From: a bacterium
Lineage (GTDB): Bacteria; UBA8248
DNA length: 64,000 bases
Direction of reading: 5' to 3'
NCBI GenBank assembly: GCA_965204535.1
Contig: CBDBEV010000001.1
Span: 448,001 to 512,000 of the forward strand
In this document: piece after piece, positions 13,251 through 37,384 of the stretch
Layout of the letters: every line of letters starts with the position of its first letter
How positions within the stretch are numbered: position 1 is the first letter of the stretch
Made by a program: the position numbers and the translations under genes
The notes under the pieces: generated by a model
The model's input: only the letters and a program-made list of their open reading frames with translations
Databases searched by the model: none
What the model was told of the DNA's origin: nothing

Positions 13251-14231
13251 TCACAGGCCGTAGCGCAGCCTCGCCATCGCGCCCTGTTTCGCGAGCTGTC
13301 CCTGCGCGTAGCGCCCCGGCATGACCGGCGACTGCCAGCGCCCGGCAATCTGCATCTCGACCAGCGACGCCCCCGCCGTGGCCAGGCTCTGCGCGCCCCC
13401 CACGCGCAGGCTGTGTCCGCTGATGCGTCCCTCCACGCCCGCGGCCTTCCCCCACCGCGCGATGATGCTCCGGATGCTCCTCTCCGTCAGGCGCGCCGGC
13501 CGAAGCCGTCCCCCCTTGTACACGCCCCGGAAGAGCGCCCCCTCCTCGATACCCGCGCGCGCCAGCCAGGCCCCGACGCGCGCCACCGTCGGCTCGCCCA
13601 GAAACTGCACGACGCCCTCGCCCTCCTGGTCCGTCTTCGAGCGGCGGATCAGCACCGTCTGCTCCTCCAGGTCCACGTCCTCGATGTCGAGCGCCTCGAC
13701 CTCCGACACCCGGAGCAGGGCGTCGCTCGCCACCGCCACGATCGCCGCGTCGCGCAGACCGCCCAGGGTCCCCGTCCCCTCGGCCAGCGCCGCCGCGCGG
13801 TCCGCCTGCTCCCAGCGCACCCCCACCACCTGGCCCCGGCCGCGCTCTGCGGCCAGGCGCCGGAAGCCGGCCAGCACCCGCTCCGAGGCCGCCCCCGCCG
13901 GGGAGGGCCGGCCGTTCAGCTTCGCCCGGAAGCGAAGCGCCGCGACCGCCATCGCGGCCACGGCCGCCGAGTGCCCCTGCTCGTAGAGATCCCCCAGGTA
14001 CGCCGCTATCCCGGCGTCGGTCTCGGGGTTTCCCGAGCGCTCGAACCTCCTGAGCGCAGTCTCGTACACTCGCCGCGTGTTCTCAGACATCGACGCCTTC
14101 GCCAGGTAGGCGGCCGCACGGGCCGGTCGGGCCGGCCTCCTCGTCAAAGCGATGTCCTGTTCCGGGTCGGGCGGTGTTGCCCCAGTCGTCATGGCGAGAA
14201 GCCAACCTTCCGGGTCAGCGGCCGTTTCCAT
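13251..14231 (-). CDS. Cre/TnpS-like tyrosine recombinase
   Basis: SENTRRVY, LRDAAI, LRVSE, RSKTDQEG, SGHSLRVG, GRWQS..MPGRY give the R-K-H-R-W-Y catalytic set. Start codon uncertain. Confidence 0.92.
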   Translation of the reverse strand: METAADPEGWLLAMTTGATPPDPEQDIALTRRPARPARAAAYLAKASMSENTRRVYETALRRFERSGNPETDAGIAAYLGDLYEQGHSAAVAAMAVAALRFRAKLNGRPSPAGAASERVLAGFRRLAAERGRGQVVGVRWEQADRAAALAEGTGTLGGLRDAAIVAVASDALLRVSEVEALDIEDVDLEEQTVLIRRSKTDQEGEGVVQFLGEPTVARVGAWLARAGIEEGALFRGVYKGGRLRPARLTERSIRSIIARWGKAAGVEGRISGHSLRVGGAQSLATAGASLVEMQIAGRWQSPVMPGRYAQGQLAKQGAMARLRYGL

Positions 14232-14347
14232 TCCCTGAGGCCGTTCCAGGGCCTCGTCGATTGCCGAGTATAGACGACGGCGGGGAATTTCCAATAAAAA
14301 AAACCGTTTCGCAGGGGAATACCGGCGAAACGGCGGGTTTCTGGAGT

Positions 14348-14535: not shown

Positions 14536-14786
14536 CGGGCAGGCCGGGTGGCAGGCGGCTCGCCTCTGGAGGCAGTGAAAGGCGGGCGCATGCCGCAGGA
14601 ACCCGCCTCTCGCGGAACCACCGGCCCGGAGCATGAAAGGGTTCAAGCCCGCCGTATTTCAGGCGGCCCGGAATACGAATCACCAGTTTGTGAAGGCCCG
14701 AAATAAAAGCTGAAGGGAGGCATCGCTTGGAGAGGCTTGCGACCGGAGTCGCATCGGCTACAGTCCGTCATCCAAAAGGGGCCGGC

Positions 14787-17464: not shown

Positions 17465-19090
17465 ATGAATTTCAGGGATAAATCGATTGGCGGGTTGTAC
17501 GCTCTCGCGCCGGCGGCGGTGTTCGCGCTGACGCTGGCGGGCTGCGGCGGTGGCGGCGGTACTGCGACGCCGACCACGATGCCCGGTCCGCAGATGGCGT
17601 GCGAGGACGCGGGCGGGCGGTGGCATGATGACGATACGTGCACCTCGGCCGCGGATCTGGCGGCAGAGCGAATGGCTGCGCAGCGCGAGGCCATAAGTGA
17701 CGCCATCATGGAGGCGATCACCGCGGTCGACGCCGTGGACAACGACTCCACCGACGCCGAGGTGAGCGCCGCCGACATGGCGGTCGCGGACGCGAGGAGC
17801 GCCATCGCGGCCGCGGCCAACGTTCCGGACGAAGAGAAAGCCGCGAACACCGGGACGGTCGACCTGCTCGCAAGCCAGCTTGCCGACGCCAAGGCGGACC
17901 GCATGGCCCACATGGACGACGCCAGGAAGGCTGCGGCCGCGGCCATGATGGCAACGGCCATGAAGCTCCATGCCGGCATCGGCAGCGATCCCCTGGCGGA
18001 CTCCGGAGCCGGACGGCGGATCGCCGCATATAGCGGGACCAACGACGCCGACATCACGGTGACCATAGGCGCCAATGCACAGGCACTGAAGGAAAACAAG
18101 GATGCGACGGTCCCCGCCAACCACGGCTGGGAGGGCAGGAAGTACACGGGCGGCACGTCCGAGGCGATCGTCTTCTCGAACGTCGGCGAGCCGACGGAGG
18201 GGGCGAAGTTCAACGCCCGGCACACCTTGGCTACCGCGGACACCGCCACCGACGCCACCAAGGCGGGTGAGTTGACCATTGCCACGGCCGGCGACACTGA
18301 CGTCCAGTCGAGAGTCGCCAGCCCGCGCTTCGACCAGTCCGCCGGGACCAAGACGTTCAAGTTGCCGGCCAATATGGTCCGGGTGGTGATTCCCGGCAGC
18401 TATCACGGAGTGTCCGGCACGTACTACTGCACGCCCGGTAGCGGTCAGACGTGCTCCGCTGCCGTAGCCGCAAAAGGGTTCACCCTTGCGGGCGGGAGCT
18501 GGGCGTTCAAGCCCACCGACCCGGAGACCCGGCTCATGGATGTGCCGGACGCAGACTACGCTTCCTACGGCGGGTGGCTCCACATAGCCGCGAACGGAAC
18601 CTGGGCCGCGAGCGCATTCGCAGACTACAAAGGTGGTGACGGTTCAGCCGAGAACGCCAGCGGCATCGATACGTTGCACGGAACGGCGAGGTACATGGGC
18701 GGCGCGGCCGGCATGTACGCTCTCTACAGCGCCACCGGGGGGACGAACGACGCCGGCACCTTCACCGCGAGGGCGACGCTCGAGGCCGACTTCAGCGACA
18801 ATTCGATCACGGGCGCCATCGACCGGTTCATGGGCGCGGACGGTCAGTCGCGGAACTGGTCCGTCGAGTTGAAGGAGGCCGCGGTCGCCGCTACGGGTGG
18901 CATTAGCCGCACTGCAGATAACGATACGGTGTGGACCATCGACGGCACGGCCGCCGCCGCCTCCGGCGAGTGGTCCGGCCGGTTTTACGAAAATGGCGAC
19001 GACGGTGTTCCGAAGGTCGCGACCGGAACGTTCCACTCGATGTTCAGCACGGACGGCCGGATGGTCGGCGGCTTCGGCGTGAACCGCTAA
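17465..19090 (+). CDS. surface lipoprotein with C-terminal TbpB-like beta-barrel
   Basis: Lipobox LAGC followed by a poly-Gly linker, an Ala-rich helical region, GTARYMGGAAGMY, FTARATLEADF, and the ending MVGGFGVNR. Confidence 0.85.
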   Translation: MNFRDKSIGGLYALAPAAVFALTLAGCGGGGGTATPTTMPGPQMACEDAGGRWHDDDTCTSAADLAAERMAAQREAISDAIMEAITAVDAVDNDSTDAEVSAADMAVADARSAIAAAANVPDEEKAANTGTVDLLASQLADAKADRMAHMDDARKAAAAAMMATAMKLHAGIGSDPLADSGAGRRIAAYSGTNDADITVTIGANAQALKENKDATVPANHGWEGRKYTGGTSEAIVFSNVGEPTEGAKFNARHTLATADTATDATKAGELTIATAGDTDVQSRVASPRFDQSAGTKTFKLPANMVRVVIPGSYHGVSGTYYCTPGSGQTCSAAVAAKGFTLAGGSWAFKPTDPETRLMDVPDADYASYGGWLHIAANGTWAASAFADYKGGDGSAENASGIDTLHGTARYMGGAAGMYALYSATGGTNDAGTFTARATLEADFSDNSITGAIDRFMGADGQSRNWSVELKEAAVAATGGISRTADNDTVWTIDGTAAAASGEWSGRFYENGDDGVPKVATGTFHSMFSTDGRMVGGFGVNR

Positions 19091-20100
19091 GAGGAGTAGC
19101 GGCGAAGCAGGTGCCCGAAGCCGTGGGCGCGCGCATCGAGGGGAGCGCCGCCCCGACGCGGCCGACGCTCGGGGGCCATGAAGTGGCGCTCTTCGTTCAG
19201 CGGCACAGAGGGCGTGCTCTCTCGATGGCGGCGTGACGGCGGGCGTGATGGGCGCCGATTACGAGTCGGGGGGGGGGTCCTCGCGGGCGTCGCGTTCGCC
19301 AGCACCCGGGCTCTGCGCCCTCCGGGGCCTGTGAGCTCGACCTCCGCGCCTCGCAGCGTCTCGGCGTCCTTCAGATCCGCGAGCGTGACCTCGCGCCCGT
19401 CGGGGAGACGGGAGGTGACCTCGCCTAGCACCTCCGCCCCGGAGCTTCCCGGCAGGCCCAGCGCCTCGATGATGCGACGCGCCTCGCGGTTGATGCTCGC
19501 GGGCTCGGCCGTACGCGCGTCGAACACCGCCATCCCCACCGGCGAGGTTTCCACCAGGGCCTCGAGACCCGCCCGCGCGCGGCGCTCCTCGCGGTGCGCC
19601 CTCGCGTTCGCGACCGCCCCCGCCGCCTGGGAGGCGAACAGCACCAGCAGCTCCTCGTCCTCCTCGGTAAAACCCTCTCCGCCCTCCTTGTCACCAACGA
19701 AAAAATTCCCCATGTGCGCGCCCTGGTGGCGTATCGGCGTGCCCTGGAAGGTCCGGCACAGGCCCAGCTCGGGCGATAGCCCCAGCGAGCGGATGTGAGC
19801 GGGAAAATCGTCCACCCTCAGTGGCGTCTCCTGATCGCGAAGGTACTCGAACAGCACGAGCCCGTCGGGCAGGCAGTTCGTCAGGCGATGGACTTCTTCT
19901 GCGCTCAGCCCGGAGGTGACGAACTCCCTGAGCCCTCCCGATTCGTCCACCGTGGTGATCATGGAGTAGCGCGCGCCGATGAGCGCGCGGGCGCCCTCCA
20001 CGATATCCGTGAGCACGGTCTCAGGCTCCAGGCTCGTGGTGATCCGCGCAAGCGCCGCGCACAGCCGCGAGATGCGCCCCGATTCGTCGTTTCCCTTCAT
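19087..20100 (-). pseudogene. GAF-PAS sensor kinase, truncated after the first PAS domain
   Basis: MKGNDESGRISRL...GAF (FTEEDEELLVLFASQAAGAVANAR), PAS (LEALVETSPVGMAVFDA). Similarity stops at a G10 tract near 19268-19277; no kinase domain. Confidence 0.8.
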
Positions 20101-20215
20101 CGTCAGTGCCTCCCGGGCAGGGAAAAGAAGAAAAACGCAATAATACACGATAAATACATGAATACAAAGAGATTAAATATGAAACAGATAGAATGTTTTT
20201 GTAAAATGAAAGATG
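20101..20215 (+). promoter_or_regulatory. shared island promoter cassette, copy B
   Basis: ACACGATAA / ACATGAATA / ATATGAAAC boxes at 11- and 21-bp spacing, then TTTTGTAAAAT. Confidence 0.6.
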
Positions 20216-20393: not shown

Positions 20394-20723
20394 ATGAGAA
20401 AAATCAAGATGGTTTTTGTCGTGATGTTCATCGTTTGCGGGGCGCTCGCTCCTGTTCAGGTTTTTGCTACGACTGAACCTGCTCAGCCAAGTACCGATAC
20501 AAGAGAAACTGAATGCAGAAACGGTTGGAATTCGAGTTCGGCATCCCAAACTTGCACCGCCAGCAGATTTTCCTCACCCTCAGACCGGCCTGACACCTGT
20601 TATATTTACGCTATCTGTCAAGGCTTGAACAAGACGGTTTCTGGTGGAATCACGGTTAGTCCGAGGAGTGCTGCCAGTAACATTAACAACTGTAACGGCA
20701 CTATGCAGACGAGTGCTTGTTGA
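20394..20723 (+). CDS. small secreted 6-Cys protein, family A (cyanovirin-repeat-like)
   Basis: Signal peptide; CRNGWNSSSASQTC..CYIYAIC..NNCNGTMQTSAC; AGGAG/AAGGA RBS. Confidence 0.85.
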   Translation: MRKIKMVFVVMFIVCGALAPVQVFATTEPAQPSTDTRETECRNGWNSSSASQTCTASRFSSPSDRPDTCYIYAICQGLNKTVSGGITVSPRSAASNINNCNGTMQTSAC

Positions 20724-21692: not shown

Positions 21693-23312
21693 GTGAGCGG
21701 CTCACGGATTGATGCCGCGATGGATGCGCTACGCCGGTGCGTGGCTCGCGACCGGCGCCGCCCGGCGGCGGCGGCCGTTCTGGGCGCCCTGGGCGTGGCG
21801 GCGCTGCCGCCGGTCCACGCCGTGCCGCTGCTGGTCGTCTCCTTCACGGGTTTCGTCCGGCTGATCCATTCCGTCTCCTCGCCGTGGCGTGCCGCCGCCG
21901 TGGGCTGGTGGTTCGGTTTCGCCCATTTCATCATGGGCGTGTACTGGATCGCTCCGGCTGCGCTCCTGCTGACCGAATCCACGCCGGCGGCCGTGATCGG
22001 GCTGCTCGGCCTCTCGGCGATCCTCGCCATTTTTCCGGCACTCGCCGCCTTCGCTGCGCGGTTGCTTCCGCTGGCCATCGCCGGCCGCGTGCTCGCTTTC
22101 GCCATCGCCTGGAGCGCCTCGGAGTGGCTGCGCGGCAACGTCCTGAGCGGTTTCCCGATGAACATCATGGGCACGGTCTGGGCGCCCTCGCTCGCCATGA
22201 TCCAGTTCACCGCGCTTGCCGGGGCCTATGGCTTGGGGTTCGTGACCGTTCTCGCCGCAGCCGCCCCCGCGGCGCTGTCCCTCCCTCCCCGGAGCGGACG
22301 TTCCTGGGCGCTGCCTGCGGCGGCGTTCGGACTGCTGACGGCGGTCTGGGCGGGCGGAGCCGTCCGCCTCGCGTTCGCGCCCGAGCCGCCGCCCACCGGC
22401 GTCAGCCTGCGCCTCGTACAGGCCAATATCCATCAAAGGTTCAAGTGGCGCGAGAAGAGGCGCAAGGCGGTACTGGATCAACACGTGCGCCTCTCGCGCC
22501 GGCCGGGCTTCGAGGCGGTCGACCTGGTGATCTGGCCGGAGATGACGGTGACCTTCAATCTAGCCGGGAATGCGCCGTTGCGCGCCCGCCTCTCCCGGGC
22601 AGCGCCCCCGGACGGCCACCTCCTGACGGGCTCGTTGCGCCGCACTCGAAAGGCGGGACGCGCGACCGCCGTCTGGAACAGCCTTCACGCGCTGACGCCC
22701 GGAGGCGCCATCGCGGCGACCTACAACAAACACCATCTGGTGCCTTTCGGGGAATACATGCCCCTTCGCGAGGCACACTCCTTCCGTGTCGTCCCCTACG
22801 AATCGGACGACTATTCCGCCGGGCCGGGGCCGCGTACCCTGAGCCTGCCCGGCGTGGCACCCTTCAGCCCCCTGATCTGCTACGAGGCGATCTTCCCAGG
22901 CGAGGTGGTGGCCAGCGGAGAGCGTCCGCGCTGGCTGCTAAACATCACCAACGACGCCTGGTTCGAGGGCACGTCCGGCCCCTGGCAGCACTTCGAGGCG
23001 GCCCGCCTGCGGGCGGTCGAGGAGGGCCTGCCGCTGGTGCGCGCAACGAACACCGGCATCTCCGCCGTCGTCGACGCCTGGGGCCGCGTGACGGGGCGGC
23101 TCGGGCCGGGCGAGGAAGGCGTGCTCGACGTCCCCCTGCCGCCGCCGACGAGAGCGCCGACGCCTCACGCGCGGTTCGGCGGCTGGACGTTCGCCGCCTT
23201 GCTGCTTCTCGCCGCCTCGGCCCTGCCCGCATTCGGGCTGCGGGGGAGAACCAAAGAGGGCGGGCCGACGGCGACGAAAAAAATTGTGTCTCCCCCACGG
23301 GCATTGGTATGA
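21693..23312 (+). CDS. lnt: apolipoprotein N-acyltransferase
   Basis: EWLRG..GFP, VQANI, IWPE, YNKHHLVPFGEY, LICYEAIF, NITNDAWF, RAVEEG, RATNTGIS. Confidence 0.95.
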   Translation: MSGSRIDAAMDALRRCVARDRRRPAAAAVLGALGVAALPPVHAVPLLVVSFTGFVRLIHSVSSPWRAAAVGWWFGFAHFIMGVYWIAPAALLLTESTPAAVIGLLGLSAILAIFPALAAFAARLLPLAIAGRVLAFAIAWSASEWLRGNVLSGFPMNIMGTVWAPSLAMIQFTALAGAYGLGFVTVLAAAAPAALSLPPRSGRSWALPAAAFGLLTAVWAGGAVRLAFAPEPPPTGVSLRLVQANIHQRFKWREKRRKAVLDQHVRLSRRPGFEAVDLVIWPEMTVTFNLAGNAPLRARLSRAAPPDGHLLTGSLRRTRKAGRATAVWNSLHALTPGGAIAATYNKHHLVPFGEYMPLREAHSFRVVPYESDDYSAGPGPRTLSLPGVAPFSPLICYEAIFPGEVVASGERPRWLLNITNDAWFEGTSGPWQHFEAARLRAVEEGLPLVRATNTGISAVVDAWGRVTGRLGPGEEGVLDVPLPPPTRAPTPHARFGGWTFAALLLLAASALPAFGLRGRTKEGGPTATKKIVSPPRALV

Positions 23313-23391: not shown

Positions 23392-23708
23392 ATGACGGCT
23401 AGCATCCTGGTATCGGCGGTGTTTTTAGTTTCCATCGCGATGGCGCCCGCCGCAGCGCGTGCGTCCAGTGACCCCCCCCGCCGCCCAAGACCGTGGTCGA
23501 AGCCTGCACCGAGAGCTGGCAGAACAGCGCTGCGGACTCGACCTGCTCGAACGAGCAATTCACGAAAGTGCTGAACTACAGATGCCGGGTCACGGCGTAT
23601 TGCCAGACGAACAGCGGCGGCACGAACAAGACATGGAAGACGGTGGAGCGCGACGACGCCGACAGGCTGGTGAACTGCAACGGCATCCTCAGGCTCGACA
23701 CCTGCTGA
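23392..23708 (+). pseudogene. family A 6-Cys secreted protein, frameshifted at a C8 tract
   Basis: Signal peptide MTASILVS..ARA-SSD. C8 at 23472-23479; C9 would restore DPPPPPKTVVEACTESWQNSAADSTC..CRVTAYC..VNCNGILRLDTC. Confidence 0.85.
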
Positions 23709-23857: not shown

Positions 23858-25057
23858 CTATGACCCGCGCAGGGCCGCGACGGGATCGAGCCTGGCCGCC
23901 TGCAATGCGGGATAGAACCCGAAGAACACGCCGGCGGCGCCGGCCACGCCCACCCCGAGACCCATGGCCGCCGCCGAGATCAGGAATGTCCAGCCCGTGA
24001 ACTGGCAGATCGCCCAGGTCGCCCCGATCCCCGCAGCGGTACCGACCATGCCGCCGGCCAGTGACAGCATGAGCGATTCGATCAGGAACTGGCTCTGGAT
24101 GTCCGTGCGGCGCGCACCGAGAGCGCGCCGGATGCCGATCTCCTGGCGCCGCTCGGCCACCGACACGAGCATGACGTTCATGACCCCTATCCCTCCTACG
24201 AGGAGCGAGATACCGCCCACCGAGCCGAGCATCAGCGCGAACAGCCGCATCTGCTTGTGCATCTGCTCGATCAATTGCTCGGCGCTTCGCACGCGGACTT
24301 CGAGGCCGGGCGCTTTGCGCCGGAAATATCCTTCGACCTCCCTCGTCGCCGCCACATGGTGCGCTCCGGGACTCATGCGCGCCGTGACATAGCGGATCCC
24401 GGGGGAGCGAAACACTCGCTGCGCCGTCGAGACGGGGATGATGATCGAGCGGTTCGCATCGAAACGGCGCTTGCCTTGCGGAGTGCGCTTCAGCACGCCC
24501 ACGACGGTATAGGCGGCGGCACCCGCCTTCACGGTCTCGCCGACGATACGCTCGAAGTCGGTTTCGCGCATGTCCGAGGCGACCTGCGCCCCGACCACGC
24601 AGAAATACCGGCGGTGGTCAAGATCGGAAATGTGCCTGCCCGCCTCGACCCGAAGCTTGTTGAGGTCGGCGAGGGCGGCGGTGGCGCCGATGAGCGTCAC
24701 GTCCTTGATCGTCCTTCCGGCGAAAATGATCTCTTCGTAGGAGGTGGCGTAGGGCGCCGCCGCTGCGATGGCGGGAAGCGCCGTGAGTCCGAGGGCTTTC
24801 TTCGGGGAGACGGCAATCGGGCCTGTTCCGGCGGCGCTCTGCTGGAGGCGGATGTTCAGAATGTCCGTGCCCAGTTCCCGGAAGTGCTTCAGGGCTTCGT
24901 CCCTGGCGGTCATCCCCACCGAAACCATCGCGATCACCGAACCGACGCCGATCACGATGCCGAGCAGGGCGAGCAGGCTGCGCTGGCGGGCGGTGGCCAG
25001 GCTGCTCGCCGCCTCCTTCAGATTGGCCTTGAGGAGAACAATCATCCAGCTCACCAA
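23858..25057 (-). CDS. MacB/FtsX-type ABC permease
   Basis: RSLLALLGIVIGVGSVI, periplasmic domain, GGIGVMNVMLVSVAERRQEIGIRRALGA, PALQAARLDPVAALR. Confidence 0.95.
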   Translation of the reverse strand: MVSWMIVLLKANLKEAASSLATARQRSLLALLGIVIGVGSVIAMVSVGMTARDEALKHFRELGTDILNIRLQQSAAGTGPIAVSPKKALGLTALPAIAAAAPYATSYEEIIFAGRTIKDVTLIGATAALADLNKLRVEAGRHISDLDHRRYFCVVGAQVASDMRETDFERIVGETVKAGAAAYTVVGVLKRTPQGKRRFDANRSIIIPVSTAQRVFRSPGIRYVTARMSPGAHHVAATREVEGYFRRKAPGLEVRVRSAEQLIEQMHKQMRLFALMLGSVGGISLLVGGIGVMNVMLVSVAERRQEIGIRRALGARRTDIQSQFLIESLMLSLAGGMVGTAAGIGATWAICQFTGWTFLISAAAMGLGVGVAGAAGVFFGFYPALQAARLDPVAALRGS

Positions 25058-25801
25058 TCACGGCGCGCCGGGGACGGAGGCCCGCTCCGCCGGAAGCGCC
25101 GCTTCGCTCAGGACGCCGTCGAGAATCCGGGTGCGCCTCGCGCACTGGCGGGCAACATCCCGGTCATGGGTGATGATAATGGCGGTGAGCCCCTCTTCGG
25201 CGTTCAATCCGGCGAACAGCCCCATGATCTCGCCGCCTGTATCCGCGTCCAGGGCGCCGGTGGGTTCGTCGGCCAACAGGATATCCGGTTCGCCCACCAG
25301 CGCCCGCGCGATGGCGACGCGCTGCCGCTGGCCTCCGGAAAGCTCGGCGGGCCGATGGCCTGCGCGGTCCCCCATGCCCACCTTCTCGAGCATTTCGCGG
25401 GCCCGGCGCCGCATGATCGCCGCGCCTGCGCCCCGATACACCAGCGGAACGGCGACGTTCTCCCAGGCCGTCAGGCGCGGAAGCAGATGGAACGACTGGA
25501 AAACGAAGCCGATGCTGGCGTTGCGCAGGGCGGACAGTTCGGCGTCGCTCATCGCGCCGATCTCGCGCCCCTTGAGGAAGTAGGAGCCGGAGGTCGGCCG
25601 GTCGAGAAGGCCGATGATGTTCATCAGCGTTGATTTGCCGCAGCCCGACGGCCCCATGATCGACAAAAGATCGCCCTTGTACACGTCAAGCCTGATTTCC
25701 CGGAGTATCTCCGTCTCGATTGGCCCCGTGGCGTAGCTCTTGCGGATATCGACCAGGCTCAGCATGATCTCCGGGTGCGCTTCGCCGTTTCCTTCGTTCA
25801 T
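25058..25801 (-). CDS. MacB/LolD-type ABC ATP-binding protein
   Basis: GPSGCGKST, IGFVFQSFHL, LSGGQRQRVAIARAL, LADEPTGALD, ITHD. Confidence 0.96.
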   Translation of the reverse strand: MNEGNGEAHPEIMLSLVDIRKSYATGPIETEILREIRLDVYKGDLLSIMGPSGCGKSTLMNIIGLLDRPTSGSYFLKGREIGAMSDAELSALRNASIGFVFQSFHLLPRLTAWENVAVPLVYRGAGAAIMRRRAREMLEKVGMGDRAGHRPAELSGGQRQRVAIARALVGEPDILLADEPTGALDADTGGEIMGLFAGLNAEEGLTAIIITHDRDVARQCARRTRILDGVLSEAALPAERASVPGAP

Positions 25802-25804
25802 CGC

Positions 25805-27649
25805 TTATCGACCTCCGATCAGGATTTCATCGCCGGGAGATATCCCGTCGATGATCTCGACCGAGTCCACGGTGGTCATGCCGGTGACCACCTCGACCGC
25901 CCTGGCCTCGCCGGAGCCGCGGTCCCTGACCCACAGCCAGGGCCGGCCGTCCTGCAACTCCACCGCCCCGACGGGAATCAGCAATGCGTTCTCCTTTTCG
26001 TAGACGACCACCTCGACCCTGGCGGACATGCCCAGGCGCAGCAGCCGGCGCACCTCCTCCGTCAGGGACTCCACGACGGCGGCGACCTCGAAAGTCGGCA
26101 GTCCCCTGCGGCCGGCGGCGGGGAGGATGGCTTGCGAAGAAACGCGGTTGACCTCGCCGCGCAGCACGACGCCGGGAAAGGCGTCGCCCACGACCCTGGC
26201 CGATTGGCCCGGGCGGATGCGCGTTACGTCCACCTCGTCCACATGGCCGATGACCGTCAGGCCCTCGAGGTCGCCGATCGTCAGCAGCAGGTCTCCCCGC
26301 TCGACGAACGCGCCTCTCGCCAGCTTGTCGCTCTCCTCGCCTGGACGCGCCGCCGACTTTTCTCCCTTCGAATGCAGGATTACCCCGGACACCGGTGCGG
26401 TCACCCTCGCCTTGCTCAGGATTCCCTCCAGGCGTTTCAGCCGGGCGCGCGCGTTGGCCAGTTCCAGCCGCGCCACGTCGAGTTCGGCGGCGCCCCTTGC
26501 CAGGACCGCCTCGAGGTCCATCTCCGCCGCCTGGAGGTCCAGCAACTGGTTGCGGTGCTCCCGCTCGGCCGCCTCGTGCTCCGACGCCGGGATGATGCCC
26601 CGCTTCAGCAGGAAGGCGGTTTCCGAGAGCCGGTTCTTCAGAGACTCCAGCGCGATCCTCCTCTTGCTCACGGCCCTCCGGGCGCGTGATACTTCGGTGT
26701 GATTGGACCAGTCCTTCAGCTCCTCGACCCGGTCGCGCGCCTTGATATGGGCGACCTGCGCCTCGCGATGGCTGATCCGAACCTCGGCAACGTCCATGTC
26801 CAGCAGTCGCTGGCCCTTGGCCACTCGTTGGCCCGGCCGGACGTGCACCGCATCCACCTTGCCCTGCATCGGGCTGACGACCTCGACCTCCCGTCTCGGC
26901 GCGAGCCGCCCGAGAATGGTGACGGTCGAGGAAATGCGCCGCGGCTCGACCACCAGAAGCCGGAGATCTTCCGGGGCGGGCGGAGCCGGGACGGCGGCTC
27001 CGCTTCCGGCCGGCGGGCCGGCGCCCGTGCCGACGTCCCAGAAGTACAGGCCGATCGCGGCGAACAGCATCACCAACGCCAGCACCGCGCCCGTCCTGAC
27101 GACACGGATATTCTTCGAGGCTACGCCCAGTTTCCGGCTCGTCTCCTCCAGCTTCAGATATGCTTCCCGGAGTTCGGCGTGCTTCGCCTCCATCTCCCTG
27201 GCCAGACGAAGTTCGGTTTCCCGCAGCTCCCTGATCTCGGTGATGTCGCTGAACAACGAGATCACGCCAATCCTGGCGGTCTCGCCGCTGCGCTCATCCC
27301 TCAAATACGTCGTCGCCATGGACAGGGAGCGTGTCTTGCCGCCGAGGGTCGCCTCCACCACGCGCTGATGGACCATGGACGAGTCGTAGACGGCGTCGAA
27401 GATCACGTCGGTGAATTCGTCCAGGCCTTCTTTTTGCGAGAAAACCTCGAAGAAGTTGCGGCCGATCACCGCCTCGCCCGTCATGTTGCAGATCTCAGCG
27501 GCCGCCGCGTTGAAACTCGTGATGACTCCGTCGGCGTCGATCGACATGACCCCGCTCGCCACGTTGTCCAGGACATTCTTGTAGATGAGATCAGCGGACG
27601 ACCGGTCGCCGCTCCCGGGCGCTCGCCTCCTGTCCTCCTCGCCGCTCAC
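25805..27649 (-). CDS. membrane-fusion (periplasmic adaptor) protein with N-terminal cytoplasmic PAS domain
   Basis: GTG start overlaps the TolC stop (GTGA). PAS (VLDNVASGVMSIDADGVITSFNAAA..IGR..FSDITE), coiled coil, one TM, then SPMQGKV..PGQRV.KGQ, APVSGV, VDEVDV..I.PGQ, LGMSA, LLIP. Confidence 0.88.
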   Translation of the reverse strand: MSGEEDRRRAPGSGDRSSADLIYKNVLDNVASGVMSIDADGVITSFNAAAAEICNMTGEAVIGRNFFEVFSQKEGLDEFTDVIFDAVYDSSMVHQRVVEATLGGKTRSLSMATTYLRDERSGETARIGVISLFSDITEIRELRETELRLAREMEAKHAELREAYLKLEETSRKLGVASKNIRVVRTGAVLALVMLFAAIGLYFWDVGTGAGPPAGSGAAVPAPPAPEDLRLLVVEPRRISSTVTILGRLAPRREVEVVSPMQGKVDAVHVRPGQRVAKGQRLLDMDVAEVRISHREAQVAHIKARDRVEELKDWSNHTEVSRARRAVSKRRIALESLKNRLSETAFLLKRGIIPASEHEAAEREHRNQLLDLQAAEMDLEAVLARGAAELDVARLELANARARLKRLEGILSKARVTAPVSGVILHSKGEKSAARPGEESDKLARGAFVERGDLLLTIGDLEGLTVIGHVDEVDVTRIRPGQSARVVGDAFPGVVLRGEVNRVSSQAILPAAGRRGLPTFEVAAVVESLTEEVRRLLRLGMSARVEVVVYEKENALLIPVGAVELQDGRPWLWVRDRGSGEARAVEVVTGMTTVDSVEIIDGISPGDEILIGGR

Positions 27650-29145
27650 CGGGCGCCCTCCCGGTCCACCTTGCCGACCTCGATGTTCCAGCGCTTGAGC
27701 GTGGTGCCCAGGGTGCGGTCCAGCGCCGTCAGGGCGGCCCGATGGGCTATGATCGAGTCCAGCTCGCTGTTCTGGGCCGACACCAGATCGTCCTCGAAGG
27801 CGACCAGGCGGAAGTTCGACGACAACCCCAGGCGCAGCTTTTCCTTTTCGATCTCCGTCTTCTGCTCCACGAGTTCGCGGGCGGAGCGCGCCAGTTCCAC
27901 CTGCCGGCCCGACAGTTCCACTTCCCGGATGGCGTTGCTCACCTCGATGTCGATTCGCTGGCGCAGGTTCGCAAGGACGTTGCGGGACTTCTCGAGTGCG
28001 ACGGCCGCCTTCACGTGTTCGTATTTCCCGGGATCCGTCGCCGCCCGGCCTATCGGGACGCCGAGATACAGCCGGGCGCCGTAGTCGGTGTCGTCGAGAC
28101 GGCCCGCGGCGGCGCCCGGGGTCCTGCCCGTACCGGAGAATTTCGTCGACAACTCCACCGAGAGATCCCACAGGCGTTCGTTGGCGGCCACCTTCGCCCG
28201 GATTTCGGCGATCCTGACGAGCACAAGCGCCCGCAGGTAATCCGGGCGATGCAGACGGGCCGTCTCGATGCCGTCCGCCGCGTCGGTTCGCGGCGGCTCC
28301 TCCTCAAGGGCGCCGGCGAGGGCGTCCGTAAGCCGGAGCCGGGTCCGGCTGTCGATGTCGAGGATGTCCGCCAGCGCCAGGCGGGCGGCGTCGAGGCTGT
28401 TCCGCGCCGAGAGCAGACGCAACTCGCGGCTGGCGATATCGGCTTGCGTCTCCACGATGTCGCGCTCGGCCATCCGGCCGGTCTGCACGAGCAGCTCGTT
28501 CACCCTCAGGAGATCACGGGCGCGCTCGAGGGACTTGGCCCGGATTTCCACGCGTCGCTCGGCCTGCATGTAATCGCGATAGCTCTCGACGACCGAGGAA
28601 ACGACTTCGATGATCGTCTGCCTGAGGGCCAGAATATTGATCTCCTCCGCAAGCCGGGCGGTTTTGACCGAGGCCGTGTTGACCCCGGCGCCCGCTCCGC
28701 GCAGCAGGGGCTGCGTGAACGTGAACTCCAGCGCGCTCGAATACCGCGGCTGCGATGAAGCGCCTCCGCTCCTGCGGCCGCCGCTCCAGGTGACCCTGAA
28801 TGTCCCGCCGGCGGGCAGGCGCACCGTGGCCCTCGACGACACGCCCGCCGCGCCGGTGTCCGTGGACGGCGCGGTGCGGCTTTTTTCGATATAGGGGCCG
28901 ATGGTCACGTGCGGACGGAACTTGTTCTCCGCCACCCGGAGAGAGAAGCGTTCCGCGACGCGATCGAGCCGCGCGTTGATCAGTTCGCGGTTGTTGCGCA
29001 TGGCCAGGGAAACGGCCTCCCCGAGGGAAAGGTGGAGATGCTCCGTCATATCGCCTTCGGGCTCTTTTCCGAACCCCGGGGCCGCACAGCAGAACAGGCT
29101 GGCCGCGGCGATGCAGGAAGCCGCCTTTGCCGAGAAAGTCGTCAC
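27646..29145 (-). CDS. TolC-family outer membrane channel
   Basis: LSLGEAVSLAMRNN, FTQPLLRGAG, V..Y, RPDY, EKEKLRLGLSS, LDRTLGT. Start codon uncertain. Confidence 0.9.
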   Translation of the reverse strand: MTTFSAKAASCIAAASLFCCAAPGFGKEPEGDMTEHLHLSLGEAVSLAMRNNRELINARLDRVAERFSLRVAENKFRPHVTIGPYIEKSRTAPSTDTGAAGVSSRATVRLPAGGTFRVTWSGGRRSGGASSQPRYSSALEFTFTQPLLRGAGAGVNTASVKTARLAEEINILALRQTIIEVVSSVVESYRDYMQAERRVEIRAKSLERARDLLRVNELLVQTGRMAERDIVETQADIASRELRLLSARNSLDAARLALADILDIDSRTRLRLTDALAGALEEEPPRTDAADGIETARLHRPDYLRALVLVRIAEIRAKVAANERLWDLSVELSTKFSGTGRTPGAAAGRLDDTDYGARLYLGVPIGRAATDPGKYEHVKAAVALEKSRNVLANLRQRIDIEVSNAIREVELSGRQVELARSARELVEQKTEIEKEKLRLGLSSNFRLVAFEDDLVSAQNSELDSIIAHRAALTALDRTLGTTLKRWNIEVGKVDREGAR

Positions 29146-29325: not shown

Positions 29326-29457
29326 TCAGCAACTACCGACCTTCAGCCAGCCGCTGCAGTTGAGCAGCCGCGCGGCATCCTCCGGGTCCATCACTTTCCA
29401 GGAGCGTCTCGTACCGCCTCCCACCCGGCACCTTGAGTACAAGTACCTGGTGGCTTG
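29326..29457 (-). pseudogene. orphan 3' fragment of a family A gene
   Basis: Manual translation: ...YLYSRCRVGGGTRRSWKVMDPEDAARLLNCSGWLKVGSC*; no start codon or signal peptide. Confidence 0.75.
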
Positions 29458-29476
29458 ATCGGCTTGGGATCGTCCC

Positions 29477-29788
29477 TCAGCAGCTCAGCTTGAGCCTGCC
29501 GTTGCAGTTCACCACCGAACCTGCATTGTCCGGGTCGAGATCAATCGTGGTATACACGTTTACGTATTCCGACTTGCGGCAGTTTGCCCCGATTCTGCAC
29601 TCGCCGTAATTCACCTCCCGGAACCCCTCATTCCAGCAGGTCGAATTCGCGGAACTTGTCTCATAATTATCCTCGCAAGTTTCAGCCACGGACTTTGGCG
29701 GCGGCGGGGAAGTGCCAGATATTGCCGGGTTTGTGGATGAGGTCAGCAAAACAACCAAGGTAAACACAAGCACAAGTTTGGGCATCAT
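29477..29788 (-). CDS. small secreted 6-Cys protein, family A
   Basis: Signal peptide; SPPPPKSVAETCEDNYETSSANSTC..CRIGANC..TTIDL..VNCNGRLKLSC. Confidence 0.88.
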   Translation of the reverse strand: MMPKLVLVFTLVVLLTSSTNPAISGTSPPPPKSVAETCEDNYETSSANSTCWNEGFREVNYGECRIGANCRKSEYVNVYTTIDLDPDNAGSVVNCNGRLKLSC

Positions 29789-29838: not shown

Positions 29839-30030
29839 TCAGCAACTCCCGACCTGCAGCACCAATCGATTGCAGTGATGTATCTTGCCGGCATCCCCTT
29901 CCGACACACCAGTGATGATCGCATCCCCCCTGTCGTCGCCGGTAGTGGTCTGGTATGTACATCGGGCACCGAAATTGCACTTGTTGTCAGTCACCCACGT
30001 ATTTCTCCGTTGGCAGGTCTGGCTGGCAGG
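29839..30030 (-). pseudogene. orphan 3' fragment of a family A gene (close paralog of 33217-33540)
   Basis: Manual translation: PASQTCQRRNTWVTDNKCNFGARCTYQTTTGDD..GDAGKIHHCNRLVLQVGSC*. Confidence 0.8.
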
Positions 30031-30055
30031 CGGTTCAATGAGCGGTTCAATTTAT

Positions 30056-30415
30056 CTAGCACGCTACCGTTTGCATGGTTTTTTTATCGATACAGTTTTG
30101 GCACGCCCCTTCGACATAATCTCTGTTGCAATTACTCAAGTTCCCCGCATTGTTGGCATCCACAACAATACTCGTACTCTTGAACTCATTTGCGGTGTTG
30201 GTCTCACAGCTCGCGCTTACGCGACAATTGTTTTCGTCAACCTTGGTAAACGTCTCCCCATTGCAGGTATGACGCGCAGACGATGCGTTATTATAGTTTT
30301 GCTGGCAAAAGAACACCGTATCCCGAACTGGCTGTGGATCCCCCGCCGCATTCGCTGTTGAAAAAGACCCTGCCGTCACCGTTGCCAAAATCACCATCAT
30401 GACTAGACTTTTCAT
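30056..30415 (-). CDS. small secreted 8-Cys protein, family A (long subtype)
   Basis: AAGGAG RBS; MKSLVMM signal; FCQQNYNNASSARHTC..CRVSASC..LSNCN..GACQNCIDKKTMQTVAC. Confidence 0.88.
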   Translation of the reverse strand: MKSLVMMVILATVTAGSFSTANAAGDPQPVRDTVFFCQQNYNNASSARHTCNGETFTKVDENNCRVSASCETNTANEFKSTSIVVDANNAGNLSNCNRDYVEGACQNCIDKKTMQTVAC

Positions 30416-32564: not shown

Positions 32565-32890
32565 CCCACTGGAATGCAAGTGTTTTCTATGGAGGGTTCG
32601 GTGCAATGCGGTCAGGCTCTGTCGTACATTCGGCCTCTCGATTGCGGCGTTTCATTCTTGCCGCGGGCCCGTATGGAGATGCGAGATGGGGTAATCGGGT
32701 TGGCCCTCGAACTGCCGCGTGTAGCGGATGTTCCTCTGTCATATGATCGAGGCGAGGCCGGGATGTCTCCGGTGTCTCTCGCCCGCAGGAGGAGCAGCCA
32801 TGAACTACTTTGCAGGACTCGACGTGTCGTTGGAGTGGACGAGTGTGTGCGTGGTGGACATGGACGGCGGGATCGCCCGGGAGGCGAAGA
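32565..32890 (+). mobile_element. IS110/IS1111-family remnant (left end and first ~30 codons)
   Basis: ATGGACGCCCA..ATGCAAG end motif, RBS GGAGGAG, and ATG at 32800 giving MNYFAGLDVSLEWTSVCVVDMDGGIARE. Confidence 0.75.
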
Positions 32891-33078
32891 GCACCAGCAG
32901 CTCCTCGCCCTCATCCGTGAAGCCCCCTCCCCCCTCCTTGTCTCCCACGAAGAAGTTCCCCATGTGCGCGCCCCGGTGGCGCATTGGCGTGCCCTGTAAG
33001 GTCCGGCAAAGGCCCAGCTCCTCGGAGAGCCCCGGTGAGCGGATGTGAGCGGGAAAATCCTCGAGCCTCAGCGGCGCC
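32881..33078 (-). pseudogene. internal GAF fragment of the same sensor-kinase family
   Basis: PLRLEDFPAHIRSPGLSEELGLCRTLQGTPMRHRGAHMGNFFVGDKEGG; near-copy of ~19630-19830. Confidence 0.8.
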
Positions 33079-33188
33079 TCTGCCTGCGAGATGATCACCC
33101 GCAAATGGCGGGTGGCCAGGCGTTTGCTCGAACGGTTTCCCGAAAAACCGCGTGCCCGCTCGGCGCAGGCGGATATACGCAAAAGATG

Positions 33189-33210
33189 AATTTCAAGCTG
33201 AGACACTGCC
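33189..33210. mobile_element. isolated IS1-like terminal repeat
   Basis: AATTTCAAGCTGAGACACTGCC resembles the ends at 3351 and 4440. Confidence 0.5.
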
Positions 33211-33216
33211 GGATAG

Positions 33217-33540
33217 TCAGCAACTTCCGACCTGCAGCACCAATTTCTGGCAGTGATATATCTTGCTGGCATCACCTTTCGACACACCAAGGATGTACGT
33301 AGTCCCCGCGTCATCGCCGGTAGTGGTCTGGTATGTACATCTGGCCCAGAAATTGCACTTGTTGTCAGTCACCGAACGACCGTTCAATGTGCAGGTCTGG
33401 CTGGCAGGCGAATTGTTCCATCCCGAATTGCAGTCACTTGTCGTGGTTGGGGGGGGCGACGGCTCCCCACCGGCCATTGCCGGGCTGGGAGCCAGGCATA
33501 CTGCTAATAACAATGCGCTTGCAATAAACAGTTTATACAT
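33217..33540 (-). CDS. small secreted 6-Cys protein, family A
   Basis: GGAGG RBS; MYKLFIAS signal; DCNSGWNNSPASQTC..CNFWARC..YHCQKLVLQVGSC. Confidence 0.88.
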   Translation of the reverse strand: MYKLFIASALLLAVCLAPSPAMAGGEPSPPPTTTSDCNSGWNNSPASQTCTLNGRSVTDNKCNFWARCTYQTTTGDDAGTTYILGVSKGDASKIYHCQKLVLQVGSC

Positions 33541-33600: not shown

Positions 33601-33912
33601 GTGATATCTCCTTATACTCACCCGATAACTGCCTGCGTCGCGCGGGTCAGGCCTGCGCGGCAACCCGGCCGAGGGAACCGGCCGGCGCTGCGCGCTGATG
33701 CCGGCCTCTTCTTCGGATGACGGGCTGTAGCCGATGCCGCCGGCGGGCTCCCCTCGGTCAATGTCTCATTTTCGGATATCCCTCCCCAAGAAACATCTGT
33801 TCGTTTATTACTCGAATTTTACCAAAGCGATATATCTTTTTCATATTGCTTGTCCCTATTTTCATATATTTTTCGTGTAAAATGTATTTTTTCTGCCCGG
33901 GAGGCACTGACG
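33601..33912 (-). promoter_or_regulatory. shared island promoter cassette, copy E, with leader
   Basis: Near-identical to 30416-30675; ACACGAAAA / ATATGAAAA / ATATGAAAA at 11- and 21-bp spacing; TGGTAAAAT. Confidence 0.65.
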
Positions 33913-34253
33913 ATGAATGGAAGCGACGAGGCTTCGGAAGATCGCATCTCGCGGCTGTGCGCGTCGCTCGCGCGGACCACTTCGAGCCTGGACTTAGAGA
34001 CCGAGCAGGACGAGGAGATGGCGGTGTTGTTCGCCTCCCAAGCGGCGGTGGCGATCGCGAACGCCCGCGCGAAGAGCGGTGCATCGTCGAGGCGCAGGGC
34101 CTGCCGGTAAGCTGCGATGCGAACATGCTCGGGGAACTTGCTATCGACTACGAGCGGCGCCGGGTCATGGTGGCCAGGTGCGAGGCGGGGCTCACCCCCA
34201 CCGGGTACGAACTGCTGCGCGTCCTCTCTGCAAACGCCGGATGGGTGACGACC
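33913..34253 (+). pseudogene. collapsed GAF...winged-helix regulator remnant
   Basis: MNGSDEASEDRISRLCA..DEEMAVLFASQAAVAIANAR, then OmpR-type wHTH LGELAIDYERRRV..LTPTGYELLRVLSANAG. Confidence 0.75.
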
Positions 34254-35346: not shown

Positions 35347-35516
35347 CCGTTTCGCATATTACGCATCCATCCGCATTTTCTCATGAAAATAACACGCCTG
35401 AAACCCGAAACCTCACGTTAAATACATATCACAGTTGTACAATTTTATTTATGCAGGTGCAGGCAGATATATCGGGTGATTAATACCTCAAGGCCATCTT
35501 GGAGAAAGGAGCTGAC

Positions 35517-35972
35517 ATGCAAACTTTCGCAGCAGTAGTGCTTGCGCTGGCTCTGATGGTCGCGGTTAGCGTGCAAGCGCACGACAATCCGACCAACCCG
35601 ACACACAAGCACGGCCTGGAAATCAAGCGCATTGACTGCGGTGGAGACGTCGAAACGGCCATTGTGGCGTTCCAGGAAAGTACCAGAGAGTGTCTGAGTG
35701 ACTGGAACTGGCGTACGGGAAAAAAGACGCCACGATGCAGCTATACGTGCTTGTGGCGCACTTGGGCTACATGGAACGGCAGTCGCCACTACGAGCCTAG
35801 TGCCTCGTACAACAAGTGCCATATCGAAAACAGCCATACACCTACTAGGGCTAAAGCAATGTTCCATCCGAGTGAGCCAAGTTGGAACCAAGGCGTCTGG
35901 GGCGTCGTCGTGCGGGACGGTTGGGGGCAAGAGGAGGTTCGCGGTGTGGGCCATGACCAGACACTACGTTGA
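35517..35972 (+). CDS. small secreted Cys-rich protein, family B
   Basis: AAGGAG RBS; signal peptide; CLWRTW, KCHI and WGVVVRDG shared with 36531-36914. Confidence 0.78.
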   Translation: MQTFAAVVLALALMVAVSVQAHDNPTNPTHKHGLEIKRIDCGGDVETAIVAFQESTRECLSDWNWRTGKKTPRCSYTCLWRTWATWNGSRHYEPSASYNKCHIENSHTPTRAKAMFHPSEPSWNQGVWGVVVRDGWGQEEVRGVGHDQTLR

Positions 35973-36081: not shown

Positions 36082-36447
36082 ATGAAAAGTCTAATTATGA
36101 TAGCGGTTTTGGTAATGACGATTGCAGGGTCTTTCGCCGCGGCGAATGCCGGGGCAGACAAACCCGTTGATACGGACCCTACGTTCTTTTGTAGGAACAC
36201 CTTTCAGAACGGTTCCGCAGCGAGGCATACCTGCAAAAACATATCCTTCGCCAAGATCGGAGCCGACTCGTATAGGGTGAGCGGTCGATGTGAAATGGCG
36301 CGTCGGCCAAACGAGTACAGGGATACGACCATCAATGTTGTTGACTCCCGCCGTTGCGGCGATCTGTCGAACTGCGACGGAAACTTGGTCTTGGGGGCTT
36401 GCCTGGACTGTGTCGATAAAAAAACCATGCGGAAGATAGCGTGCTAG
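36082..36447 (+). CDS. small secreted 8-Cys protein, family A (long subtype)
   Basis: AAGGAG RBS; MKSLIMI signal; FCRNTFQNGSAARHTC..SGRC..RRCGDLSNCDGNLVLGACLDCVDKKTMRKIAC. Confidence 0.88.
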   Translation: MKSLIMIAVLVMTIAGSFAAANAGADKPVDTDPTFFCRNTFQNGSAARHTCKNISFAKIGADSYRVSGRCEMARRPNEYRDTTINVVDSRRCGDLSNCDGNLVLGACLDCVDKKTMRKIAC

Positions 36448-36530
36448 ATAAAAAACTGCGGCGGCAACCTTGGGCTCGGAGCTTGCCGATGGCAAGGCTG
36501 CCGCACTTCCCAAACGGAAGGAAGCCGGAA

Positions 36531-36914
36531 ATGTTCTTGACCCTTGCCACGATGGGACTCGCCGTCGCCCTTGTGACAGGGACCGCGGCGCAGGCGCAGA
36601 AGCCGCTGAAGATCGACACGGCGCTCTGCGAATCCCGCGCGGTCAAGCTGTCGTTCCATCGCGGGGGCGAGTGCCCGTGGTATGGGTGCTCGTCCGACGC
36701 CAACGCCTGCCTGTGGAGGCCGTGGCGGTACACCGCGAACGACGATCGCCTGGAGCTTGGCGGGGCGCTGCACAGCTGCCACATCCGCAGGGAGGGAAGC
36801 GACTACGTGGCCCGGTTCCGGGTGCCCCGCCCGCAGGGCGCAATCTACGGGTGGGGCGTGGTCGTGCGCGACGGATACAGCACGAAGTGGCTGCTCTGCG
36901 AAGGGGAGGAGTAA
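36531..36914 (+). CDS. small secreted Cys-rich protein, family B
   Basis: Signal ending AQA-QKP; CLWRPW, SCHI, WGVVVRDG; 6 Cys. Confidence 0.78.
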   Translation: MFLTLATMGLAVALVTGTAAQAQKPLKIDTALCESRAVKLSFHRGGECPWYGCSSDANACLWRPWRYTANDDRLELGGALHSCHIRREGSDYVARFRVPRPQGAIYGWGVVVRDGYSTKWLLCEGEE

Positions 36915-37075
36915 CAGCGACCCCACCGGCTATCTGTGCTGACCGGAAGCCGAAGGATTACGCGGGCGAACAGCCCGCGTAATCCTTTGTCTGGCATCGT
37001 ATATAAGCCCCCTAAATTGACAAAGCGGGCTCGTTTATTGACATCGGTGATACATCCGCAATGGAGGGAGAATTC

Positions 37076-37384
37076 ATGAACATTCGAGGTATGCTCGCGC
37101 TCTTTTTTCTGGTCGCCCTGAGCGCGACTCCTGCCCTGGCGATGAGTGAGAAACCGAACTCGGAGGAAGCGTGCAGGAATGCGTTCAACAAATCCAGCGC
37201 CAACCGGACCTGCGACCTCGACTCCGCGGGACCGTCCGGCGGCTCCAAGTGCTATATCGATGCCCTGTGCCAGTACCGGGACGGGAACATCGTCAGGAAG
37301 CGACGCACCACCCTCTCGGTACCGCCGACAGACGTCGGCTCCCTCAACAACTGCAACGGATGGTTGCAGATCGGGAGCTGCTGA
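37076..37384 (+). CDS. small secreted 6-Cys protein, family A
   Basis: Signal ending ALA; ACRNAFNKSSANRTC..CYIDALC..NNCNGWLQIGSC. Confidence 0.88.
   Translation: MNIRGMLALFFLVALSATPALAMSEKPNSEEACRNAFNKSSANRTCDLDSAGPSGGSKCYIDALCQYRDGNIVRKRRTTLSVPPTDVGSLNNCNGWLQIGSC

Follow-up and report, generated by a model that had tools for sequence, protein, structure and literature searches.

The 64,000-nucleotide stretch of bacterial DNA analysed here (the window; assembly GCA_965204535.1, contig CBDBEV010000001.1, positions 448,001 to 512,000) carries an operon in the order tolC, adaptor, ATPase and MacB-type permease, in which the adaptor gene encodes a membrane-fusion protein with a PAS domain in front of its membrane anchor (Table 1). 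The adaptor gene runs from 27649 to 25805 on the minus strand as a single stop-free frame of 614 amino acids (aa), and the plus strand of 25805-27649 is interrupted by a stop. It begins with a GTG that shares bases with the stop of tolC (GTGA, 27649-27646) and has a GGAGG 7 bases upstream; an initial annotation made from the sequence alone had described the two genes as translationally coupled; adaptor start and tolC stop also overlap in 19 of the 27 plus-strand loci tabulated. A second adaptor copy, 94% identical, is present elsewhere in the same genome. The junction between the PAS and adaptor parts, for which the annotation had advised a check of read support, is bridged by a contig from a separate study (X5 record 29, 26603-27366) that spans PAS, helix, membrane segment and adaptor with 26 differences and no gaps.

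Table 1. Features of the exporter locus and its relatives; coordinates are those of the window unless a locus handle (L) precedes them.
Feature	Location	Strand	Description or support
PAS - coiled coil - transmembrane - MacA-type periplasmic adaptor	25805..27649	-	614 aa; profiles, AlphaFold, fold matches
Cytoplasmic PAS domain	27242..27592	-	residues 20-136, C-terminal F-x-D-I-[ST]-E; PF00989, fold matches
Length-locked cytoplasmic helix / coiled coil	27104..27241	-	residues 137-182
Single membrane helix	27038..27094	-	residues about 186-204, preceded by basic residues
Variable Pro/Gly/Ala periplasmic linker	26963..27037	-	residues 205-229
MacA-type adaptor body (membrane-proximal, beta-barrel, lipoyl, long hairpin)	25805..26962	-	profile and fold matches
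TolC-family outer-membrane channel	27646..29145	-	PF02321 E 3.9e-31; start by codon model, longest open reading frame begins at 29220
MacB/LolD-type ATPase	25058..25801	-	PRK10535 and LolD models E about 2e-70; Gly-Pro hairpin G26-P27
MacB-type permease (MacB_PCD + FtsX)	23858..25057	-	PF12704 E 5.6e-31, PF02687 E 3.4e-20
Six-Cys secreted protein (candidate cargo)	20394..20723	+	family member
Six-Cys secreted protein	23392..23708	+	family member; frame broken at C run 23472-23479
Six-Cys secreted protein, directly upstream of tolC	29477..29788	-	family member; fragment follows, 29326-29484
Six-Cys secreted protein	30056..30415	-	family member; fragment follows, 29839-30051
Six-Cys secreted protein	33217..33540	-	family member
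Six-Cys secreted protein	36082..36447	+	family member
Six-Cys secreted protein	37061..37384	+	family member
Extra Lnt-like N-acyltransferase	21741..23312	+	WPE, YNK..FGE, ICYE motifs (E-K-C triad); paralogue at each exporter copy
Further extra Lnt-like acyltransferases	L017:16322-17926; L056:2160-3590		beside exporter
GAF-helix-transmembrane-adaptor variants	L070:36-1847; L076:5477-7264; L079:7648-9459; P0272-P0293		same pump

The domain order first proposed for this frame, namely PAS, coiled coil, membrane segment and periplasmic adaptor without interruption, was confirmed by profiles, structure prediction and fold matches. PF00989 matched residues 23-121 (E 4e-10, 40.2 bits against a cut-off of 22.6) and TIGR00229 residues 22-144; the stretch quoted in the annotation, FSDITEIRELRETE, corresponds to residues 133-146, and the adaptor profile TIGR01730 begins at about residue 241 (E 1.9e-33). 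An AlphaFold model built from 101 sequences, with a mean predicted local distance difference test score (pLDDT) of 84, gave a PAS domain, an unbroken helix (137-180) that runs into the membrane helix (182-202), a linker with residues 204-224 below pLDDT 50 and predicted to be disordered, and a MacA-like body. The best solved fold matches of the adaptor were MacA 5NIK (Z 18.8; residues 227-614, root-mean-square deviation (rmsd) 10.9, 327 aligned) and 9QGY, and those of the PAS part were the PASc domain of CitA (5FQ1; Z 14.4, rmsd 3.4, 109 aligned) and the PAS domains of NtrB and ThkA (Z 12.9); an Atlas search with the PAS part returned generic PAS clusters. In addition, 97 of the 101 aligned relatives have a single hydrophobic segment within residues 150-200, with 3.5 Lys/Arg before and 0.6 after it, an excess that places the PAS domain in the cytoplasm according to the positive-inside rule. 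Conserved positions include F46, F66, E68, F70, D77, F79, A86 and T113 in the PAS domain, several of them aromatic or acidic, and L142, E146, H157, L160, A163, Y164, E168, N171 and L174 in the helix.

The PAS fusion is a real family, neither a relic nor a misassembly, because at least 268 distinct full-length sequences combine PAS, helix, membrane segment and adaptor and because the PAS domain is as conserved as the adaptor. Among the best 120 of 336 relatives, 116 of the 119 non-self sequences align over both parts, with a mean identity of 61.7% for PAS plus helix and 61.9% for the adaptor, and the remaining three are cut at the N-terminus. Alignment columns were likewise about equally conserved in the PAS domain (0.69), the helix (0.70) and the adaptor (0.69), and less so in the periplasmic linker (0.33). 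Among 1.84 billion representatives searched by profile, 150 matches were listed, 83 of which were multi-PAS proteins scoring by their repeats; the other 67 listed all run on into the same helix, 54 of them reaching the adaptor and 13 being short (149-355 aa). When the adaptor body of a distant member was used alone as query, 111 of the 120 relatives listed had a full PAS domain, six were fragments and three were without PAS. Furthermore, the ratio of nonsynonymous to synonymous substitution rates (dN/dS) of the PAS domain was 0.06-0.47 in 12 of 13 computable pairs, and 16 of 16 splits of the PAS-helix tree recurred in the adaptor tree. The initial annotation had considered that homologs might lack the PAS region or that the true start might lie just before the membrane segment; the relatives keep the PAS region, and no conserved start precedes the membrane helix, Met being present in at most 17 of the 101 aligned relatives at any column from 137 to 190.

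The occurrence of the family is patchy. It was found in 4 of 51 genomes of this phylum, every one in this genus, and in 21 of 243 genomes of the order to which L001 belongs (named Candidatus Poriferihabitaceae, Arenicellales), and further relatives carry the names Deltaproteobacteria, Syntrophales, Nitrospirae and Desulfuromonadales. A sequencing run labelled sponge metagenome contains 0.70 of the locus. A metagenome scan with the single protein gave no match, and an alignment-based scan, which covered 19 of 64 parts, did match; a plasmid search with the PAS-helix part gave no match.

Judged by its sequence, the pump is a tripartite system of the MacAB-TolC type (type VII ATP-binding cassette, ABC), with ATPase, permease, adaptor and TolC all present. 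Neighbourhoods were counted over 47 other loci, several of which end at contig edges; L077, L078 and L080-L133, which are generic adaptors or fragments, were excluded from these counts, and 16 of them served as ATPase controls. The ATPase was present in 46 of these loci, TolC in 44 and the permease in 43; in L019, tolC-adaptor and ATPase-permease lie on opposite strands and face each other. The initial annotation had spoken of an export channel, and the split ATPase and the FtsX/MacB permease instead indicate a MacB-type pump, which takes its cargo from the periplasm. Type I secretion of the HlyB-HlyD-TolC kind was rejected, as the motor is MacB-type and not HlyB-like and TIGR01843 scored 40.5 bits, below its cut-off of 208.65. 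The adaptor was also rejected as a MacA orthologue in the strict (equivalog) sense, PRK11578 scoring 60.8 bits against a cut-off of 342 and 180 residues being cytoplasmic. At the position of Gln209, which forms the lipoyl gate ring of MacA, a Gln aligns here, in a loop where the alignment to the profile has gaps. The Gly-Pro hairpin of the ATPase was found in 37 of 41 PAS-type and 3 of 3 GAF-type loci and in none of the 16 other MacB-type ATPases; it may be a mere lineage mark and was not counted as a docking site. Between the two exporter copies of this genome, the permease (23858-25057 vs L017:14506-15702) differs at 57 positions, mostly periplasmic, compared with 1 position in TolC, 3 in the ATPase and 13 in the PAS domain, and it is possible, from this comparison of sequences, that cargo and signal specificity diverged after the duplication.

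The system shares with MacAB-TolC of E. coli (PDB 5NIK, 9QGY, 3FPP) the TolC channel, an anchored four-domain adaptor, for which MacA is the best match in both sequence and fold, and a MacB-type ATPase and permease; it differs in having about 180 residues in the cytoplasm (the helix together with PAS or GAF), in the greater length of its hairpin and in the separate genes for ATPase and permease. MacAB-TolC exports STII, a Sec- and Dsb-dependent protein, from the periplasm (PMC5985334).

The spacing of conserved residues shows where a fixed phase is kept. From D135, the aspartate of the DIT motif, to L174 there are 39 residues in 101 of 101 sequences (A1) and in 39 of 41 (A4), and the other two are shorter by exactly 7, that is, by one heptad; sensor-kinase linkers also change length in heptads. 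From L174 to G200 the distance is 26 residues or differs by 4, and between G200 and G247, a span that includes the periplasmic linker, 10 (A1) and 13 (A4) lengths occur, ranging from 40 to 65. The locked helix together with the free linker means that phase is kept between PAS and membrane and not between membrane and periplasmic body, and it makes the MacB motor a likelier target of a signal than the channel mouth. The membrane helix is an unlikely route for gating the channel, because the periplasmic linker shows no conservation, varies in length and is predicted to be disordered. In the model the helix is about 70 Å long, so that the PAS domain would sit beside or below the ATPase dimer.

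The sensor itself appears to have been exchanged. In L070, L076 and L079 a GAF domain stands on the same helix, ahead of the same ATPase type, and a search with the helix-membrane segment-adaptor part of the GAF form gave a top tier of 24 sequences (at least 216 bits; next 80), 20 with GAF and 4 with PAS; the distance from the GAF end to H-x-E-L was 26 residues in 20 of 20 scored sequences (21 aligned). In adaptor-only trees the GAF forms fall in two places and their monophyly was rejected by the approximately unbiased (AU) test (p 0.017 and 0.024), p-values that are soft because the group was defined after an earlier tree had been viewed and the GAF rows have an unusual composition. From these trees, a PAS/GAF swap apparently happened more than once; the GAFs of the two groups are alike (39% overall), so a single GAF module that moved from one adaptor lineage to another is just as probable an origin as two new fusions. 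The GAF form retains an N-K-x-F-x-D motif, as seen in cyclic-nucleotide-binding GAFs. Additionally, three relatives (P0454, P0455 and P0459) have no sensor and consist only of the adaptor, the membrane helix and the lower part of the cytoplasmic helix (from about K156/H157); PAS is thus an extra that the family can do without, added to a conserved lower helix, which is what one would expect of a regulator. On alignment, this lower helix seems to be the core, with PAS or GAF as a module set on top.

The architecture, the positive-inside topology and the operon observed here suggest, with a probability of about 0.5, that the PAS domain senses an internal signal and, via helix and anchor, switches the MacB ATPase that would eject small, periplasmically folded proteins through TolC. 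The features of the family that this would draw on are that MacB loads its cargo from the periplasm, that the adaptor is hexameric and that its N-terminal part is required for ATPase stimulation; removal of MacA's cytoplasmic region or of its membrane helix compromised both ATPase stimulation and resistance (Tikhonova 2007 as cited; PMC5985334, PMC10094684). In a hexamer, the PAS domains could pair through the coiled coil, giving three pairs some 70 Å beneath the membrane, next to the ATPase dimer or under it, and binding of a ligand or partner would shift the register of the coiled coil and alter the contact of lower helix and anchor with MacB. The cargo would be Sec-exported, disulfide-bonded proteins encoded nearby, in this genome the cyanovirin-like six-Cys proteins described below. 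Direct control from the cytoplasm is the best reading because of the phase-locked helix and the PAS/GAF exchange. The fusion, its topology and its conservation are supported, and the proposal of the initial annotation that a cytoplasmic signal controls the exporter directly remains favoured; its channel-gating part does not, the motor being the likelier target across so loose a linker.

Several observations weigh against control of the motor by the PAS domain. That the domain regulates the pump is something we infer, and no ligand motif was found in this candidate sensor. The PAS alignment has no conserved Cys or His column, H94 being present in 32% and 41 of 75 PAS domains having no Cys, which leaves unsupported both the earlier suggestion of a redox signal and a heme-, flavin- or thiol-based redox PAS, a kind marked by a conserved His, Met or Cys ligand or a LOV motif; non-covalent binding of a flavin, or binding of a lipid, is still compatible. 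Kinase and cyclase linkers in which PAS or GAF precedes an S-helix (PMC1592074) share the sensor, the DIT motif and a helix that is locked in length at about 40 residues. In contrast to them, the helix here lacks ERT, which is replaced by A-[KQ]-H, and leads to a membrane anchor and not to an enzyme, and it was rejected as an S-helix on a profile built from only 19 segments (mean score 0.6 vs 0.7 for the hairpin), scoring above the hairpin in only 44 of 101 sequences. In the lower helix two heptad registers fit almost equally (0.69 and 0.57), so that the helix does not settle the oligomer state. Distances of PAS and ATPase showed no correlation beyond shared history (mirror tree, partial r 0.08), and the pair within this genome gave a dN/dS of 1.23 for PAS and 1.68 for the adaptor body, on few changes. 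Candidate cargo was absent near 15 of 38 loci in a crude screen with controls from a single genome. In the published work, the membrane helix of MacA is not essential for assembly (Lin 2009 as cited in PMC10094684), and stimulation by MacA requires the periplasmic domain of MacB (PMC10094684).

A PAS domain devoid of cofactor residues, or the GAF in its place, could be a ligand-less module for dimerisation or docking that brings adaptors together in pairs beforehand or draws in another protein, such as the Sec machinery or a chaperone, and so aids assembly, which we regard as possible though unlikely. Its nearest folds include the PAS domains of CitA, NtrB and ThkA, for which we know of no established small ligand; docking would require a fixed helix phase just as signalling does, and the helix is not an S-helix. 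On the other hand, the apparent exchange of two unrelated sensor folds, at least twice, and the loss in three relatives exceed the needs of a scaffold, and the GAF form keeps its presumed nucleotide-binding motif. Signalling might instead run inward, the adaptor reporting assembly or cargo load and the PAS domain offering an output surface to anti-sigma partner-switching proteins or to the neighbouring hybrid kinase. Such proteins do occur at these loci, STAS genes being present in 6 of the 47 and RsbW-like ones in 4, often just upstream of tolC and with PP2C and sigma-54 activators, and a hybrid regulator with GAF, kinase, receiver and DNA-binding domains adjoins both copies in this genome. 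Nevertheless, 41 of the 47 loci are without STAS and most lack such neighbours, the loose periplasmic linker would impede transmission in this direction too, and a PAS or GAF ahead of the helix is in input position according to a survey of such linkers (PMC1592074), so that inward signalling seems distinctly improbable.

Less probable still is that the PAS domain recognises cytoplasmic cargo, by analogy with the small cytoplasmic domain of HlyD, which binds substrate in type I secretion (PMC13328181), since the MacB-type transporter reportedly offers no route through the inner membrane (PMC5985334) and the candidate cargo have Sec-type signal peptides and paired cysteines. Finally, the PAS part could be seen as an untranslated relic or an assembly chimera, given that broken copies exist (a stop after the helix in L058, an additional truncated PAS gene in L021), an explanation that is refuted by conservation: the intact proteins counted above, the purifying selection, the lack of a conserved internal start and the independent bridging contig leave it practically no room.

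With respect to what the motor would eject, all 13 six-Cys genes or fragments of this 4.56-Mb genome are found no farther than about 8.5 kb from an exporter copy, 9 at one of the two and 4 at the other. Their products bear Sec-type signal peptides and paired cysteines, and the pump likely exports them, as far as gene position and sequence can tell. The model of the six-Cys protein (pLDDT 95) had cyanovirin-N (CVNH) structures as its top four fold matches (Z 6.0-6.7; next unrelated 3.9), with E 0.03 in Foldseek and 0.88 in Atlas; Pfam PF08881 was unmatched in 14 of 14, and the protein has a single repeat. We take the predicted cyanovirin-like fold as a moderate lead. The neighbourhood of L074 contains a true CVNH gene. 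Over the 47 loci, neighbours included Calx-beta in 11, six-Cys proteins in 9, STAS in 6, Dsb in 4, RsbW-like in 4 and Lnt in 2, and small open reading frames with signal peptides were found near 23 of 38 loci compared with 18 of 60 control windows, in a crude screen with controls from this genome alone. The C run at 23472-23479 has 8 C, out of frame, in the window, X1 and X3, and 9 C, in frame, in X4 from another study; it is possible that this is a slipped-strand on/off allele, the in-frame form being present in one contig only.

An acyltransferase may add to this locus. The two extra Lnt of this genome are 72% alike and about 35% alike to a third, probably housekeeping, Lnt; the extra Lnt including that of L056 are 63-72% alike, and five other genomes searched had one Lnt each and no extra copy. 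A Gly stands right after the signal peptide in 6 of 11 candidate cargo of the genome, read by eye, and a Phe in the cargo of L056. This recalls the Aat system (AatPABCD; PMC7943197), which secretes the glycine-acylated lipoproteins CexE/Aap and shares TolC, the adaptor, a split MacB-type ATPase and permease, a dedicated Lnt-like acyltransferase and small Sec-secreted cargo. In the available text AatB has no described sensor, whereas here the sensor is on the adaptor; the Gly is invariant in CexE/Aap (PMC7943197), in contrast to the 6 of 11 found here, the cargo is cyanovirin-like and an extra Lnt occurs in only 2 of the 47 loci besides the window. Membership in Aat was thus rejected, the Lnt triad being present and the N-terminal Gly not being invariant, and by analogy an Aat-like glycine-acylation add-on is possible as a local feature.

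Other secreted proteins and regulators also lie near these exporters. Upstream of tolC in L019 (12798-17724) there is a tandem array of at least eight near-identical secreted proteins of 160-170 aa with no Pfam match, and in non-sponge relatives L071 (4207-7626), L061 (6410-7810) and L074 (2407-3660) encode, next to the pump, further arrays of small signal-peptide proteins with 6-14 Cys and no Pfam match. STAS anti-anti-sigma and RsbW-like genes recur in L061, L062, L064, L065, L067 (upstream of tolC) and L059, some of these loci adding Cache-HAMP-PP2C and an NMT1 binding protein, and L064 and L067 have sigma-54 activators with an unusual N-terminus. The GAF-kinase-receiver-DNA-binding regulator is intact at the second copy (L017:6237-8576) and in decayed pieces at the window copy (19087-20148, 32805-33314 and 33850-34110). 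The window further encodes a 541-aa lipoprotein-like protein with no Pfam match (17465-19090, plus strand), which has about a dozen long paralogues genome-wide. The island around the exporter also contains an RTX-repeat secreted protein (14727-16406, plus strand), a phage-type integrase (13251-14294, minus strand) and two Cys-rich secreted proteins of a different family (35499-35972 and 36441-36914, plus strand).

A sensor on an adaptor is not unprecedented: a GAF-HlyD protein encoded at the secondary SecA_DEAD / M50 locus, with a sensor-type domain on the adaptor and a proposed regulatory role, is in print (Kamneva, Poudel and Ward 2015, PMC4452313). That locus is described, in the portion available, as having no ABC transporter, whereas the MacB-type ATPase is present in 46 of the 47 loci here and the commonest sensor is a single PAS. 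Our literature searches brought up no publication in which the adaptor of a MacB pump carries a PAS domain, and supplementary domain-architecture tables could still list the fusion. The terms 'PAS domain' and 'GAF' are absent from the available text of the reviews PMC13328181 and PMC10094684 and from the opening 300,000 characters (747,818 in all) of PMC8277102, and 'GAF' from the available text of PMC4446572.

A 2018 review named the control of the MacB ATPase by the unresolved N-terminus of MacA as a key open question (PMC5985334), and a review of June 2026, in its available text, describes MacA as having no cytoplasmic domain and as being tuned by transcription only (PMC13328181). The family described here has a large, folded and length-locked extension on that very element, which cryo-electron microscopy should be able to show, and its natural PAS, GAF and sensor-less versions are built-in controls. 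Tentatively, and at less than even odds, these loci could represent a widespread and so far undescribed class of two-step protein secretion machines, allosterically switched from within the cell, in which the adaptor carries an exchangeable sensor (PAS, or a GAF that maybe binds cyclic nucleotides) coupled to the MacB motor through a phase-locked coiled coil. By such machines sponge symbionts would release lectin-like and adhesin-like proteins on cue, and in this genome the added paralogue of Lnt would, in the manner of Aat, attach lipid to cargo that begins with Gly. If the motor is indeed regulated in this way, it would be a new control mode for tripartite exporters and a handle for ligand-switchable secretion, and it points to a possible export route for the lectin-like and Calx-beta proteins of sponge symbionts.

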